Assembly: GCA_016183365.1 (NCBI GenBank)
Contig: JACPES010000003.1
Coordinates: forward strand, 409,154 to 473,153
DNA from: Candidatus Collierbacteria bacterium
GTDB lineage: Bacteria; Patescibacteriota; Microgenomatia; UBA1400; JACPES01
Length of the DNA stretch: 64,000 bases
Direction of reading: 5' to 3'
This document shows, piece by piece, positions 9,001 to 48,000 of this stretch (the stretch's first letter is position 1; each line of letters begins with the position of its first letter). The position numbers were made by a program.

Positions 9001-12000
9001 CTAAGATATACATGGGTGATGAATGATGGATGATGGATGACGCAATCGCATCAACCATTAACCATTATCCATTATTCATTAGCTAGAATTGTCTAGTTAA
9101 ATATAAATTCATGTCGGTAATCTGGTCTTTTTTGATCCAATAGGTTCTGCCGGAGTGTTTTTGGCGGTGAAAAATTTGGAACAGGATTGCCATCGGGCCG
9201 ATGATGAGGAAATAAACCACTGCCATGATGATGACGGTTTGGACGCGGCCGATTTTAATCAGGATTTTTTTGACAGGAGACCAAACTATTTTTAACATAA
9301 ATATACTTTATCACGACTTTCGCACCTAAATGTCATTCCGAGCGAGGCCGCAGGCCGAGCGTGGGAATCTTTTATCAGATTGCCGCGTCGTCCCTCGACA
9401 AGCTCGGGACTCCTCGCAATGACAATTGCGAAACTTGTGCTTATTTGAAATTTTGAAGAGCATACCATTCCCAAAGTTGTTGTAATCCTGTTTCTAAATT
9501 GATTTTTGGTTTCCAGCGGAGTAAAGTTATTGCTCCAGTTATATCGGCATAAGTGGCGTTGACGTCGCTCGGGGGCAGAGGTTTGGAGCGGAGAATTGCT
9601 TTTTTGCCGACTGTCGATTCGATAGCGGCGATAAATTCGCGGAGAAGAACAGGAGAAGAATTTCCTAAGTTTATTATATTGAACTTCGGTTTAGACAAGT
9701 TTAGTGACGCCATAATTCCGTTGACAATATCGTTTACAAAAGTGTAATCCCGGCTGGTGCCGACGCCGTATGTTTCAATCGGCTTACCTTTGGCGATAGA
9801 GTCCATAAATTTAAAAGCCGCCATGTCCGGACGATTGCGCGGTCCATAGACGGTAAAAAACCTAAGAATAGTTACGGGAATTTTGTAGAGTTTATGGTAG
9901 GTGCAACAAAGAAGTTCAGCGGCGCGCTTGGTAGCGGCATAGGGAGATATTGGTTGATCGCAAGGCGCGTTTTCTTTAAATGGCACCGAGGTGTCGTTGC
10001 CATAAACACTCGATGAGGAGCCAAAAATAAAATGTTTGGCTTTTAAATCTTTCGTCAATTCCAGCATTTTTAAAGTCCCGCCGACGTTCACTTTTTCATA
10101 CAAAAGAGGTTGTTGAATAGATGCCCGTACACCCGCCCGAGCTGCCAAATGAATTATGGCATCAATTGTTTCATTGTTAAATTGCTCAATTGTTAAATTG
10201 TTAATATCTGTTTCAATCAATTTGAAATTCTTATTGTTTAAATGCTGGGCAATGTTGGCGCGTTTTTGAGAGGGAGAATAATAGTCGTTGAAGTCGTCGA
10301 CGCCGATAACGGTGTGTCTTTCGGAGAGAAGTTTATCTAAAAGGTTGGATCCGATAAAGCCGGCACAACCCGTCAGCAAAATCGTCTTTTTGTTTTGCCG
10401 ACTTGAGCGTTGAGCGTTGAGCGCTGAGCGTTGAGACATATGATTGAGATTAGTGAATTTCAAGGAACCTAATAAAAGCGATAGTTTTTGATCGAATTTC
10501 GTTTAATAGCAATTCAGTTTGATCGGCTTGTTCATGAGAAATGTATCCGAGATCTGCTGAAAGAATTAAATAATATCTCACTTCTTCCAGTGAGCCTAGA
10601 GAGATATAAAGAAATTGTATGAACTCTTTGTTGGATTTTCTGCCGTATCCCTCTGCGATATTTGCAGGAATAGATACTACAGCTCTAAGCAATTGGTTGG
10701 TAAGTGAAAATTTTTCGAGTGTCGGAAACACTTTTGTGAACTTGTATATCGTAACCACAAGTTGATGGGATAACCGCCAGATTTCAAGTTGACGAAAAGA
10801 TTTAATAGCTGTTGCTTTTGACATGTGTAATTTTTTTCAACGTTCAACGTACAACGTTCAACGTACCGAAATAGGCTATTGTTTTCATAAGTCCTTCTTC
10901 GAGTCCTATCTTTGGTTTCCAGCCTAGTTTTTTATTGGCCTTTGAAATGTCAGGGCGGCGGCGTTCGGGATCGTCTTCAGGGAGCTTATCGAATTTAATT
11001 GTAGATTTTGAGTCGGTTAAACGGATGATCGTTTTGACTAAATCCAGAATAGAGATTTCTGTTGAATTACCAATGTTTATGGGGTCGGCGTTGGCATCCG
11101 AGTGGAGTAATTTCAAAAGTCCTTCGACCTGATCATCGACATAACAAAAGCTGCGGGTTTGGTGGCCGTCACCATGAATGGTTAATGGTTGATGGTTGAT
11201 GGATGATTGAATAAAAAGCGGGATAGCTCTGCCGTCATCGGGATTCATTCTTGGGCCGTAAGTATTAAAAATCCTGGCGATTCTGGTTTGAACGCCAAAT
11301 TTCCGGCTCCAAGCGGCGCAAATTGCTTCCCCCAAGCGCTTGCTTTCATCGTAGATGGCGCGCGGGCCGATTGGGTTGACGTGGCCCCAATATGTTTCCG
11401 GTTGAGGATGGATTTCCGGATCGCCGTAAATTTCGCTGGTGGAGGCAAACAAAAAAACCGCGTTGTGTTTTTTAGCTAATTCCAAAAGATAATGAGTCCC
11501 GATAGAGTTGACTAAGTATGTTTCTACCGGAAGGGCGTGGTAGCTTTTGGGACTTTTGGGGTTGGGGCCGGCGGGAGAGGCGAGGTGGAGGATGAAATCA
11601 AGGGCTAAGGGATAAGGGCTGAGGGTTAAGGGCCAGCTGGGTTTTGAAACGTCGGTCTCGATCAACCTGAAGTTTGGATTTGACAGCAGGTGGGCGATAT
11701 TTTTACGTTGGCCGGTAATAAAATTATCAACGCAAATAACGTGGTTATTTTCAGCTAACAATTTTTCGCAGATGAAACTGCCGATGAATCCTCCTCCGCC
11801 AGTGACTAGGTATACGTCTTTTGACATTTTTAATAATTATTCCAACAGAATTTTTCGCGATTTAGATTTTAAGTCGATCATCAAGCGATGGCCTAGAAGG
11901 AATTCCATGCCGACCAGGTGATCCTCGCTTTCTGTAAAGATGGCGGGCAGTTCTCTAATTTTGCTGTTTTCCCATATTTTAACTACATAAACATTAAAAA

Positions 12001-45000: not shown

Positions 45001-48000
45001 AAGGAATAATTACTAATCCGAGGCAACTGCACATTTGCTATTTGTTGACCCCGACCAGATATTTATGGAGTCATGCAAACGAATATTTATCGGAAATCCC
45101 GACGGCGTTGAAGCCGTTGGCGCGGATTGCTCAAGTTAAATTGAGGGTTTGGGATTTTATGGCCGCCCAACGGCCGGATTACTTTTTAAGTATCAGTAAA
45201 TTAGTTCAACGCAGATGTTGGAAATATTATCGGCGAGAGGCGGAGGTAGTGTATCCGATGTTGGGATTATCGAGCTCTTTGAACGTTGAACGTCGAACGT
45301 TGAACGTTGATCAGCGATCAACGCACAGCGCGCAACGGTCAGCTGTTAAGTCTTACTTTCTGGTCGTTTCCCGTTTGGTTCCCTATAAAAGAATTGATTT
45401 AGCCATTAAAGCGTATAACAGATTAAAACTGCCGTTGGTCATAGTCGGGACCGGGTCAGAAGAAAAAAGCTTAAAACGTTTAGCAGGTCGAACTATAAAA
45501 TTCACCGGATATTTGACAGATCAGGGGCTGATTGAGTACTATCGAAATGCTCGAGCGATTATAATGCCCCAAGAGGAAGATTTTGGATTAACCGCGGTCG
45601 AGGCTTTGTCATTCGGAGTTCCGGTAATAAGTTATAAACACAGTGGCGCGGCTGAGATGATAAAGGATGGAGAAACCGGAATTCTATTCGGCGAACAATC
45701 GGTAAATTCGCTAGCTGAAGCGATAAAAAAAATTAAAAATGTGAAGTTTCGCCCTGCGGAGCGGGGTCCTGCTTCGCCCTGTACCAGACGGTACGGGGCT
45801 TCGCAGGATAAACTTCACAATGAGATTTATTCTCAAAATAGATTTAAACAGGAATTTAAAGATAAAATAAACAAACTATGGATGAAGCATCAAGAAAACA
45901 TTTATTCGCGGTAATTTTGGCCGGCGGCGGCGGCACCAGATTATGGCCCCGGTCGACCAATGCCAAACCCAAACAGTTTTTACGGCTGATCTCGGATAAG
46001 ACCATGCTTCAGGAAACCTTCTTACGGATTACTTCGATCATTCCTTCTCAAAGGGTTTTGGTAATCACCAATTCAAAATATAAATCTATGGTAGAAACGG
46101 ATTTGCCTTCGGTGCCTGTAAAAAATATTTTTGCCGAACCGGAAAAAAGAGATACTGCTATGGCGATGGGGGTAGGCGCGATTATGGCGTCTTGGCTAGA
46201 CCCGGAAGCGGTAATTATTAATTTAGCCGCCGATCATGTTGTTAAAAATGAGGATGAATTCCATAGGACGATTCTGGCGGCGGCTGCCGCTGCCCAAAGC
46301 GGCAATTTCCTGGTAACGGTAGGGATTAGTCCGACTTCCCCCCATACCGGTTTGGGTTATATAAAAATAGGTGAAAAGATTAATGAGCTTAACGGCCTTC
46401 CGATTTTTAAAGTTACCGGGTTTACGGAAAAACCGAAGACAGGTAAAGCCAAAGAATTTCTGGCAACGGGAAAATATTTTTGGAATGCCAATAATTACGT
46501 TTGGACCGCTAATTCGGCACTTGAGTCCTTTAAAAAACATTTACCCAAAACTTACTCCCAGTTATTAAAATTGAAAGAAGCCTTGGACGGAAAAGAGTTA
46601 AATAAAGCGATCGGAGAGGCTTATTCATCGGTTGAGCCAATATCTATCGATTATGGTGTATCTGAAAAAGCCGAAAATTTATTGTTGGTGCCCGGAGACT
46701 TTGGGTGGAGCGATATTGGGGATTGGCAAGTGGTTTACGACCTGTCGACTAAGGATAAAATGGGGAATGTGATTGACCAGTCACGAGGAGTACCTCCGAT
46801 ACTAATTGACGTCAAGGGCTGTTTTGTTTGCGGAGGAAAAAAACTATTGACTGCGGTTGGAGTGGAAAATATGATAATAGTAGAAACCAAAAAAGCAGTT
46901 TTAATAGTTCCCAAAAATAAAGCCCAATCGGTAAAGCTTATTGTCGAGTGGCTTAAAGTAAAAGGCATGACCGAATATTTATGACAATTTCAGCCTATGG
47001 GATTGGAAAAAGGGCTTTAGACGTTATTTCAGCGGTAACATTAATTGTTCTTTGTACCCCTTTATGGATAATTATTCCGATATTAATTAAATTAGAGAGT
47101 TCTGGGCCGGCGATTTTTTCTCAACCCAGAGTCGGCCGGAAAGGCAAGATATTTAAGATTTTAAAGTTTCGTTCGATGGTCGTGAACGCGGATGAGTTAT
47201 TATGGAAGAACCGGGAATATAAAGAATTAAGGAATAAATTTACAGAGTCGGATTGGAAATTAGAAAACGATCCCAGGGTAACTAAAATCGGATGGATTTT
47301 ACGGCGTTTATCCATTGATGAATTTCCCCAAGTGTTTAATATTTTAAAAGGAGATATGAGCATTGTCGGTCCCCGGGCTTACCGGCCCCAAGAGATCGAG
47401 GCCCAAGCCAAAAAATATGCCCATACCAAAAAATGGATCGAGAAAGCGTTATTGGTTAAACCGGGGATTACCGGACTTTGGCAGGTTTCAGGCAGAAATG
47501 ACGTCCCATTTGACAAGAGGGTCCAAATTGACGCAGAATATGCCAGCAGGAAATCGCTGTCGGAGGATCTGATGATTTTATTGAAGACGCCAAAGGCTAT
47601 GTTGAGCAAGTGGTGATTGCAACCCTTGAATAAGTTGTTTTCAACAGTCATTCCGTGCTCGACACGGAATCTATATAATATAGATTCCAGCTTTCGTTGA
47701 AATGACATGGAAAACGGAGTTATTTAACACTCTTTAATTTATGGAAGAAGACAAAAGTGAAAACCTAAATGTTAAATCCCCGGCGGAAAACACCAGCCGT
47801 AAGGGGTTAAAATTTTTCCTTCTTGGATTTGGAACTATTCTGCTGATTGTGGCGGTCTTGGGGCTATTTGTCGGATTGCAGGCCAAAAAAGTCTATACCG
47901 AGACTTTAAAGCTTCAACCCCTAATTGAAAAAGCTCAAGGCAATTTTTCGGCCCAAGATCTGTCGGCCTTAAGGAGGACTTTAGCTGATATAAATAATCA

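Follow-up and report, generated by a model that had tools for sequence, protein, structure and literature searches.

The 64-kb window analysed here (64,000 nt; positions 409,154 to 473,153 of contig JACPES010000003.1, Candidatus Collierbacteria bacterium, assembly GCA_016183365.1) is dotted with short tandem arrays of mostly 7-nt units, which lie at gene junctions and inside the open reading frames (ORFs) of otherwise conserved enzymes. We think it probable, at roughly 0.6, that these arrays are stable, lineage-specific repeat DNA resembling the short tandemly repeated repetitive (STRR) sequences of cyanobacteria, and that, at permissive sites, both they and the accompanying hairpin micro-elements are tolerated and undergo translation. 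This reading is built on the existence and enrichment of the arrays, their lineage distribution and placement, the avoidance of stop codons, the stability of array length, the formation of stems and the presence/absence polymorphism of some elements, all of which are demonstrated here.

Array coordinates were obtained with Tandem Repeats Finder (TRF) on the window and checked against the raw sequence, and genes were mapped from an ORF list and Pfam scans of 50 window proteins; L089, L091, L092, L094, L095 and L216 denote loci or contigs of related Collierbacteria genomes. Every array named in an earlier note on this DNA was recovered by TRF at, or a few bases from, the position given there. 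In a strict scan, the window contains 9 period-7 arrays of at least 3 copies versus 0.0 in dinucleotide shuffles, and no arrays of period 6 or of periods 8–15. The non-redundant TRF list (at least 2.9 copies) comprises 30 arrays of 19–43 nt, with 20 of period 7, 3 of period 8 and 4 of period 9. Copies per array range from 3.4 to 4.9, apart from a single case of 6.1 copies at only 66% matches, and many arrays are interrupted. The earlier label "heptanucleotide" captures the dominant period and is too narrow, as octamer (10164–10204, 51685–51727) and nonamer (13703–13773, 34548–34624) arrays belong to the same phenomenon. Across 145 kb of Collierbacteria sequence, period-7 arrays number 35, 14, 17 and 2 at 2, 3, 4 and 5 copies, whereas Markov shuffles of the same set yield 0.2, 0 and 0 at 3, 4 and 5 copies; the distribution has its mode at 4 and falls steeply above 5. 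More than half of the listed arrays (17/30) are inside long intact ORFs, and the other 13 are at or near ORF ends or in spacers. With a coding fraction of 94%, junctions make up about 6% of the sequence and hold these 13.

When periods 7 and 8 are counted together, there are 3.0 arrays per 10 kb in the window and 5.1 in five related Collierbacteria loci, compared with 0.34 in loci of other phyla (1.27 Mb, the distant-phylum loci among the matches listed for a search of genome contigs with the UDP-xylose synthase, UXS, protein), a density about ten-fold higher in the Collierbacteria loci. One Curtissbacteria locus and one other Patescibacteria locus (CPR, for Candidate Phyla Radiation) have no such arrays. 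The syntenic loci L089, L091, L092, L094/L095 and L216 are, like the window, rich in both periods. A literature search found no earlier report of arrays of this kind in CPR bacteria.

The same units recur more often than expected: among the 20 heptamer arrays of the window there are 5 identical-unit pairs versus 0.29 expected (P = 0.0002), and the unit families CATCAAC, TCAACGY, AATTCAG and AAGGGMT reappear across genes and genomes, with the CATCAAC family dominant in all genomes. Around arrays of one unit family we found no conserved flanks and no target motif. A metagenome scan with (CATCAAC)4 returned a mixed set: telomere-like arrays of the TTTAGGG/AGGGTTT type that probably come from eukaryotes; contigs of low GC in which heptamer arrays are numerous and which may be cyanobacterial; and contigs of high GC. 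The idea that the CATCAAC unit itself is lineage-specific is ruled out by these mixed matches. The cyanobacterial STRR1–3 units are CCCCAGT, TTGGTCA and CAACAGT, and none of them is among the units of the window.

Reading frame and the placement of arrays in proteins

The arrays inside ORFs are translated and, as the earlier note had recognized, are not ordinary codon-based amino-acid repeats. When the period is not a multiple of three, the same periodic peptide is encoded in all three frames, with every frame visited once per three units; a pure array of a unit that has a stop in any frame must therefore contain an in-frame stop. Among the 15 in-ORF arrays, 9 have units that are stop-free on the sense strand (6 of these 9 have antisense stops), and in the perfect arrays every unit is stop-free. 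All five internal arrays whose pure unit would generate a stop are substituted at exactly that codon (TAA to GAG, TAG to TAT, TAA to CAA, TAG to AAG and TGA to CGA), and the sixth stop-generating array is the end of the UXS ORF. This pattern shows that translation runs through the arrays and that purifying selection keeps their frame open.

The arrays that are translated, or that overlap gene ends, are the following (L216, used for comparison throughout, is a syntenic Collierbacteria locus about 78% identical to the window):

10164–10204, minus strand: octamer array (AATTGTTA)5.1 in the beta3-beta4 loop of a short-chain dehydrogenase/reductase (SDR) epimerase gene
10403–10435, minus strand: heptamer array (TTGAGCG)4.7, one stem arm around the IVP gene (see next section)
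10836–10866, minus strand: heptamer array (TTCAACG)4.1, the other stem arm around the IVP gene
11178–11207, minus strand: array-like stretch (ATGGTTG)4.3 over the conserved UXS core segment SSINHQPLTIH
11600–11633, minus strand: heptamer array (AAGGGCT)4.9, sense-strand AGCCCTT, in the UXS beta3-beta4 loop PLTLSPYPLAL
31518–31615, plus strand: (CAATTTT)n array split by a GC-rich nested hairpin, inside a glycosyltransferase family 2 (GT2) gene
33555–33585, plus strand: perfect heptamer array (CCTTATC)3.4 in a PMT_2-family gene
35151–35190, plus strand: heptamer array (AATTCAG)4.9, encoding EFRIKNPEFRIK, in the glycosyltransferase family 4 (GT4) gene GT4a (34633–35730)
35305–35334, plus strand: perfect heptamer array (CATCAAC)4.0 in a GT4a loop, 4 residues longer than in L216
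35812–35857, plus strand: heptamer array (AAGGGCT)4.9 in the GT4b gene (35724–36896)
37655–37688, plus strand: perfect heptamer array (AAACTCG)4.4 in a GT2 gene
42764–42797, plus strand: heptamer array (AATTCAG)4.6 within a second GT2 gene, where L216 is 5 residues shorter
45279–45343, plus strand: heptamer array (TTGAACG)4.6 with a degenerate inverted copy, in the interdomain linker of GT4d (gene 44715–45914)
51685–51790, plus strand: octamer array (AAATTGTT)5.4 over the stop codon of a tRNA synthetase gene, then (TTGTTTT)3.4 at the start of the next ORF
56694–56849, plus strand: A-rich (AAACAAA)4.7 and nonamer (TTAAGAAAC)3.7 within a Mur ligase, in its interdomain part, of uncertain membership in the class

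The UXS gene (10844–11827) illustrates both kinds of placement. In the AlphaFold model of the protein (predicted confidence, pLDDT, 88), the array at 11600 lies between strands 53–57 and 78–82, in a loop that by alignment is about 8 residues longer than in human UXS1 and that has a pLDDT of about 85, i.e. no predicted disorder. The stretch at 11178–11207, which the earlier note had counted among the added peptides, does not belong there: the sequence under it is conserved and structured (in the model, the end of a helix and a strand), with zero length change relative to human UXS1. Across 26 close orthologues, the loop holds a separate repeat-encoded peptide in each clade (PLTLSPYPLAL, STLNVQRSTL, HQRINASTHQRI, PSSFGLRPSAL, KFQNSEF and QFNNLTI), and in the DNA of four genomes this one site is occupied by (AGCCCTT)n over 33 nt, (TCAACGY)n over 36 nt, (ATCATYC)n over 24 nt and the octamer (GCATCAAC)n over 36 nt. 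In L095, (GCATCAAC)4.5 sits in the matching loop of both UXS and the adjacent paralogous epimerase, about 970 nt apart (5650–5685 and 6621–6656), and in L094 it is found in the epimerase only (sites 4850–4879 and 5814–5849 compared). Outside the loop, UXS is 97% identical between L094 and L095, yet the two genes carry different arrays. In the DNA alignment this difference belongs to a patch of about 120 nt surrounding the array, which is divergent in the array flanks as well; the swap is homologous recombination with another allele, and de novo replacement of the array was rejected. Apparent gene disruptions and a 74-nt difference in a further locus, L093, proved to be runs of N.

Neighbouring genes have similarly variable loops. 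The epimerase beta3-beta4 loop, where the window's octamer array carries the change from TAA to GAG, has a CCATCAT array in L091 and a CTTCCCT array in L092. One loop of the carbamoyltransferase holds (AATTCAG)4.6 in L089 and (ATCAACC)4.3 in L091; instead of an array, the window and L092 have there a GC-rich, perfect palindrome of 30 nt.

Comparison of the glycosyltransferase genes with L216 shows the same range of states. At the sites of 33555, 35151 and 37655, L216 has arrays of equal length and different units, (GATTCAW)n and (AAAAGTT)n in the first two; at 35812 all 46 of 46 nt are identical; at 42764 there is no array. In place of the 45279–45343 array, whose peptide is kept in the proteins P0123 and P0143, L216 has a GC-rich palindrome. 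The insert at 31518–31615 has no counterpart in L216, where 51 nt are missing and the sequence between two gaps aligns poorly. Alignments of GT4 orthologues give a matching pattern in the interdomain linker and in a loop, and an exact-protein look-up of the GT2 that carries (AAACTCG)4.4 returned no record.

The earlier view that each array adds a peptide to its enzyme is accurate for the sites at 11600, 35305, 42764 and 45279, with net gains of 4 to 10 residues, but not for those at 11178, 33555, 35151, 35812 and 37655, where length is unchanged. Its premise that the host enzymes are otherwise conserved is supported, and most arrays fill variable loops or linkers of these enzymes; a weak array at 44293–44315 departs from this, lying in conserved coding sequence. 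Arrays thus occupy permissive loops, linkers and termini, some as net insertions and others as length-neutral replacements.

Arrays are not confined to the surface-glycan genes with which the earlier note had linked them. Many lie in glycosyltransferase genes, and others were found in a Mur ligase gene, in a lipoprotein-like ORF and where the tRNA synthetase gene ends; enrichment in glycan genes over housekeeping genes is not evident in this window, which consists mostly of glycan genes and whose housekeeping part also holds arrays. One large region devoted to glycan biosynthesis takes up approximately 47 kb; after it come recO, the gene of a class II tRNA synthetase and the beginning of the dcw cluster, with mraZ, mraW, a penicillin-binding protein gene and Mur ligase genes. 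GC skew is positive throughout the 64 kb, and most genes are on the plus strand.

Two further differences from, or similarities to, L216 were noted outside the arrays. The window (30221–30371) and L216, otherwise about 78% identical, have in common two exact runs of 67 and 74 nt that span the 3′ end of ORF 27421–30333 and a spacer with a palindrome (30347–30384); this stretch may be a conserved promoter, operator or small RNA. L216 (6541–6756) has a 432-nt insertion with a 71-residue ORF on the opposite strand, missing in the window at 31374.

Junction stems, Avd-like cassettes and hairpin elements

Arrays at junctions, and some within ORFs, occur with inverted partners or as parts of small hairpin elements, some of which resemble miniature inverted-repeat transposable elements (MITEs):

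9012–9081, unstranded: inverted heptamer pair (ATGGATG)4.1 and (CATTAAC/CCATTAT)3.7, from TRF; hairpin fold z = −2.3
10450–10824, minus strand: gene for a 23S rRNA intervening-sequence (IVS) protein (IVP; Avd-like four-helix bundle), Pfam PF05635, E = 2.8e-38
13699–13773, unstranded: hairpin with arms (GATCCGAAT)n in the divergent DegT/GT2 spacer; z = −2.4
16065–16161, plus strand: hairpin with arms (CAAGAAGCAGGAAA)2.2 and (TTGTTTC)4.3 at the DUF2142/hexapeptide-transferase junction; z = −6.4
16682–16749, plus strand: inverted arrays (ATGAATG)6 and (ATTATCC)2.3 at the hexapeptide-transferase/EamA junction, from TRF and folding
17132–17262, plus strand: long hairpin with arms (AATTTAC)4.4 and (AATTGAG)3.6 in the spacer 3′ of the EamA gene; z = −3.0
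22815–22895 (minus strand), 31543–31594 (plus strand) and 45743–45820 (plus strand): nested mini-hairpin element, the full copies (22.8 and 45.7 kb) being 78 nt
34535–34633, plus strand: MITE-like element of about 95 nt with arms (GATCCGAAT)n at the methyltransferase/GT4 junction; fold z = −3.6
Window 10403–10866, L092 8330–8900, L091 19712–20275 and L091 10895–11345: PF05635 array-stem cassettes, from folding, with minimum free energy (MFE) and centroid structures in agreement

The expectation that inverted pairs form hairpins was confirmed for several of them by inverted-repeat search and folding. Complementary pairs that form long hairpins are at 16065–16161, 17132–17262, 34545–34625, 13699–13773, 9012–9081 and 45279–45343; the z-scores of the junction stems run from −1.6 to −6.4, five of six being below −2. 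The pair at 9012–9081 lies just 5′ of the conserved start of the carbamoyltransferase, whose orthologues begin at the second Met. Equivalent junctions across genomes carry hairpins that differ in sequence.

The clearest stems enclose genes. The arrays at 10403–10435 and 10836–10866, listed separately in the earlier note, are actually the two arms of a single stem around an inserted gene: they are inverted copies 400 nt apart that form a stem of about 35 bp in both MFE and centroid structures, on either side of the IVP gene that sits between the UXS and epimerase genes. This gene has no counterpart at the same junction in L089, L092 or L094. The arms also belong to the neighbouring genes, as 10403–10435 encodes an N-terminal extension of the epimerase or sits in its 5′ leader, and 10836–10866 encodes the C-terminal tail of UXS, with the UXS stop codon being the TGA of the array. 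All four PF05635 cassettes are enclosed by stems of complementary arrays, in four different units and with arm pairing kept, and they sit between protein-coding genes of mRNA operons rather than in a 23S rRNA helix. It is probable that paired junction arrays act as, or at least are maintained as, RNA or DNA stems.

Arrays that stand alone within ORFs have no local fold (mean z = −0.75, against −0.06 with a standard deviation of 1.2 in controls), and these scores lend no support to the view that they are decayed hairpins. Long-range pairing between 33555 and 35812 was also rejected, because the complementarity is not kept in L216. Nowhere in the window does a match to Rfam attain the gathering score of its family.

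Some elements differ in presence or absence between genomes. Over 21 kb there are 22 indels of at least 12 nt between the window and L216, many of which are arrays, hairpins or MITE-like elements. The element at 34535–34633, with its inverted array arms, is flanked by an 8-nt direct repeat (TGAAAATC / TGAGAATC) and is absent from L216. The 20-nt hairpin CCTGTACCAGACGGTACGGG occurs in three exact copies versus 0 by chance, all within ORFs and all with the 7-nt direct repeat GCTTCGC on both sides, and an empty site in L216 has the outer element with a single GCTTCGC and lacks the inner 27 nt. One copy of this hairpin lies inside the (CAATTTT)n array, the two halves of which sum to 4.7 units. Arrays and hairpin elements are physically linked, as shown by the hairpin within the array at 31.5 kb and by loops that hold an array or a hairpin in different orthologues. 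The duplications of 7 and 8 nt equal the array periods, which suggests, and does not prove, an origin of arrays as footprints. No transposase domain was found by Pfam among the 50 window proteins scanned.

Other hairpin-forming sequences were observed alongside these. A MITE-like family with inverted ends GTCATT[CG]C...GAATGAC has copies at 9325–9432 and 28393–28530 in the window and at 6107–6196 in L216; the copy at 28.4 kb is a 138-nt in-frame insert in ORF 27421–30333 and is absent from L216. GC-rich perfect palindromes at 7927–7970, 22984–23055 and 52539–52607 have z-scores of −6.5 to −8.7, and two of them are in ORFs and translated. Related palindromes, GGCCTGGCC...GGCCAGGCC and AAGGTCCGACCTT..., are found in orthologue loops of other genomes.

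Array length and the weighing of explanations

Array length proved stable between samples and between relatives. Independent assemblies of 8 sequencing runs are 100% identical to the window over 9391–17160, which includes seven arrays, and contigs from further runs are 100% identical across the arrays at 35151, 35305, 35812 and 42764. In total, the consensus of about 14 runs is identical over 11 arrays (10164, 10403, 10836, 11178, 11600, 16121, 16682, 35151, 35305, 35812 and 42764), a comparison at the level of assembled consensus sequences. The UXS sequence is 100% identical to a Candidatus Collierbacteria protein, and its 90% cluster has a single member sequence, present on 11 contigs of which the longest measures 588 kb. 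Between L094 and L095, the UXS patch aside, arrays are identical at 3–7% sequence divergence. In orthologues of 61–85% identity, array peptides are constant in length and differ by point substitutions, as in LNVERRTLNV[DE]QRSTHS[AV]QRSAVKS. Among the orthologues compared there are no gains or losses of three units, which would stay in frame, and no frameshifted (OFF) alleles were found, the array-bearing ORFs being intact in the window, L089, L091, L092, L094 and L216. The earlier note had proposed to look for length heterogeneity between reads and to compare copy number between strains, and had named uniform length together with the same peptides in orthologues as the outcome that would speak against switching; at the level of consensus, that outcome is nearly what we observe.

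Under our preferred reading, the arrays would form a lineage-wide population of short tandem repeats with units of 7 or 8, occasionally 9 nt, in 4–5 copies of about 25–40 nt in total and in few unit families, as part of a wider micro-repeat set that includes array-armed hairpins, nested mini-hairpins and MITEs. In a genome that is 94% coding, such repeats would persist only at harmless sites: at junctions usually as inverted pairs, for which stems of 25–45 bp are possible in the polycistronic transcript, and within ORFs in surface loops, interdomain linkers and protein termini, where they would simply be translated. An ORF would accept any array whose total length is divisible by three and whose unit is stop-free, with selection purging stops as they arise. 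The arrays would then be evolutionarily stable passengers, whose alleles may be swapped between lineages by homologous recombination, and not fast-slipping switches. They may have originated by polymerase misalignment with a 7–8-nt register, by copying between arrays or by insertion of small elements, and the junction stems may have a role at the RNA level, such as RNase III processing or transcript stabilisation.

Several observations weigh against this reading. Every short-read contig that reaches the (AAACTCG)4.4 array (37655–37685) breaks there, with contigs of 7 runs ending and contigs of 6 runs beginning inside it (Logan contigs L217–L224 and L231–L237, drawn from more than 10 runs). It is the only array with 31 nt of perfect periodicity, a stretch that we take to equal the k of the Logan assembler (k = 31). 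Because all contigs stop there, the purely periodic 31-mer must occur in every sample in one more context, be it an allele of greater length or a further array of this kind, and heterogeneity in copy number would likewise yield a break at this point. Other contig ends inside arrays are at 10173–10220, 17160, 35305 and 42788. In addition, some arrays and hairpins (the array at 35812 and the hairpin at 45740, compared with L216) are better conserved in nucleotides than their coding surroundings, which fits a sequence-level function better than pure neutrality. The arm complementarity kept in four cassettes with four units argues that paired arrays are selected or generated as structures. The reading does not account for the period of 7 or 8 nt, for the 4–5 copies with their steep fall above 5 or for the recurrence of units at unrelated sites without conserved flanks, and the Collierbacteria sequence base is only about 145 kb from six related genomes.

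The explanation advanced in the earlier note was that the arrays are contingency loci, in which slipped-strand mispairing alters the 7-nt copy number, shifts the frame and toggles glycan-biosynthesis genes. A unit that is not a multiple of three, the arrays within glycosyltransferase genes and the prospect that a longer allele supplies the second context behind the contig breaks at (AAACTCG)4.4 are all compatible with this, and heptamer repeats drive phase variation of hmw1A/hmw2A in Haemophilus influenzae (PMC8262952). We nevertheless regard such switching as very unlikely, given arrays of just 4–5 copies, many of them imperfect or interrupted, the uniform consensus across runs and contigs, the conserved array length in orthologues despite point substitutions, the presence of arrays at junctions and in non-glycan genes, and fixed stop-avoiding substitutions that lower slippage. 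The tract length and purity needed for high-rate slippage are not reached by these arrays. Selection for the protein products, with flexible or disordered loops altering enzyme or surface properties as proposed for Borg tandem repeats, would be in keeping with translation in loops or linkers and with the conservation of some array peptides across orthologues. It is the explanation in which we place the least trust and is highly improbable, as the same units are untranslated at junctions in both orientations, unrelated peptides occupy one site in different orthologues, and the UXS loop is not predicted to be disordered; the in-ORF repeats of Borgs reportedly have unit lengths divisible by three, unlike the periods of 7 and 8 here. 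Pure local replication slippage, by which arrays arose in place in unconstrained sequence and were homogenised by misalignment with no mobility or function, could account for the several arrays that replace earlier sequence with length unchanged (11178, 33555, 35151 and 37655) and for the UXS segment QALxNxPLTIYG, which became SSINHQPLTIHG by point changes that raise its 7-nt periodicity. A 7-nt polymerase register was proposed by Mrazek et al. 2007, as summarised in PMC4679880. As a complete explanation, local slippage seems unlikely: the same small set of units turns up at sites that are unrelated and in more than one genome, the copy-number distribution peaks at 4 and falls abruptly above 5 and does not decay monotonically, some array-bearing elements are discrete insertions with flanking direct repeats, and the copy-number differences expected between close relatives are not seen.

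The remaining alternatives start from the hairpins. If the long stems are functional RNA or DNA structures, processed for example by RNase III and stabilising or terminating segments of the operon transcript, the in-ORF arrays would belong to the same layer. The folding scores of the junction pairs, the enclosure of all four IVP genes in stems that keep complementarity while their units differ, the hairpins of differing sequence at equivalent junctions and the nucleotide-level conservation at 35812 and 45740 make this a real possibility, although one we hold to be somewhat doubtful, since most in-ORF arrays are solo and without local fold, the sole long-range candidate pair (33555/35812) is not complementary in L216, inspection of the sequences by eye found no T-runs 3′ of the hairpins, and Rfam has no match in the window. 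A different possibility is that arrays are footprints or targets of mobile hairpins, where insertion duplicates a 7–8-nt target and loss of the element leaves tandem copies, or where elements home into arrays. This would explain the GCTTCGC repeats around the three copies of CCTGTACCAGACGGTACGGG and the empty site in L216, the 8-nt repeat at the array-armed hairpin at 34.5 kb, the match of duplication lengths to array periods, the hairpin within (CAATTTT)n and the loops occupied by an array or, in a different genome, by a palindrome. It has a reported parallel in Nostoc, where small dispersed repeats lie within heptamer arrays (Elhai et al. 2008). We doubt it as a general account, because every step of +7 would frameshift an ORF, unrelated units at one orthologous site are unlike a fixed target sequence, arrays have no conserved flanks or target motif, solo in-ORF arrays have no residual hairpin, and no transposase domain was detected. 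More speculative still, and in our judgement quite unlikely, is an active system of micro-mobile elements (array-armed hairpins, mini-hairpins with 7-nt targets and IVS-like cassettes with Avd-like genes) that writes in-frame segments of 24–140 nt into enzyme loops and termini. The arrays may in that case be arms, targets or footprints, and the Avd-like protein or some nuclease may mediate mobility or RNA processing; if true, this would rank among the smallest known systems of mobile DNA and would supply a minimal genome with new protein loops.

Relation to known repeats and significance

Among the long simple-sequence repeats of bacterial genomes rich in repeats, those with 7-nt units are the commonest (PMC4692102; PMC4679880), and the GGGNATC repeats described from Xanthomonas and Nostoc by Rehm et al. 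2015 (PMC4692102) show a preference for four units. The stable repeat DNA that we favour for the Collierbacteria is most similar to the STRR/heptanucleotide repeats of cyanobacteria (Mazel et al. 1990; Mrazek et al. 2007; PMC4692102), which are also short arrays of about four units, dispersed, in few families and enriched beside ORF ends. The host differs in being a CPR bacterium with a small, 94%-coding genome, and its arrays have several unrelated, non-G-rich units plus octamers; G-quadruplex formation cannot account for the preference for four units here. More than half of the Collierbacteria arrays are inside ORFs, whereas the known ones are predominantly intergenic and under-represented in coding sequence (PMC4692102). 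TAACTGA repeats of Beggiatoaceae, cyanobacteria and Bacteroidetes (MacGregor 2015, PMC4679880) have 2–6 copies, mostly beside start or stop codons; one orientation has stops in all frames and so ends ORFs, and the rare copies within ORFs are at the protein periphery (PMC4679880). That system has a single unit and is almost wholly intergenic, in contrast to the many units found here, in internal loops of core enzymes and with arms paired as stems.

Four further systems are also comparable. The 23S rRNA intervening sequences with PF05635 ORFs likewise have a gene within a long stem formed by the insert ends; the Collierbacteria cassettes are instead at protein-gene junctions, and their stems consist of 7–8-nt tandem repeats in which the ends of the adjacent proteins are encoded as well. 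In Nostoc punctiforme, small dispersed repeats (Elhai et al. 2008, Genome Res 18:1484) are reported to be hairpins of 21–27 nt, nested, embedded in heptamer arrays and polymorphic in presence and absence, much like the mini-hairpins of the window. The latter differ in phylum, in that the three copies are all in frame within ORFs, and in their visible 7-nt flanking duplication. Rickettsia palindromic elements (Ogata et al. 2000), reportedly of 100–150 bp in single families and in-frame in the genes of a reduced genome, are similar as selfish palindromic DNA that is tolerated at surface positions and translated, and dissimilar in that the Collierbacteria inserts are arrays of 24–40 nt and hairpins of 27–138 nt with no sequence similarity to them. 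The hmw1A/hmw2A tracts of Haemophilus influenzae are long, vary between isolates and act in the promoter or 5′ region, unlike the length-stable, translated arrays of 4–5 copies described here. What the two have in common is a 7-bp unit and an association with surface structures (PMC8262952).

CPR bacteria are regarded as streamlined, yet the Collierbacteria tolerate dense repeat DNA inside core enzyme genes at 94% coding, which shows how repeats, selfish or structural, can survive in so dense a genome. Where the period is not divisible by three, all frames yield the same peptide, and selection then has only stops to remove. In practical terms, the arrays cause breaks in short-read assemblies, make CPR proteins look richer in low-complexity regions and can pass for phase-variation loci. 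The array-stem cassettes around Avd-like genes give a starting point, open to testing, for working out what the 23S-IVS proteins do, and the lineage offers a second, independent system, beside the heterocystous cyanobacteria, in which to study the preference for 7 nt and for about four copies and the relation of arrays to mini-hairpins.

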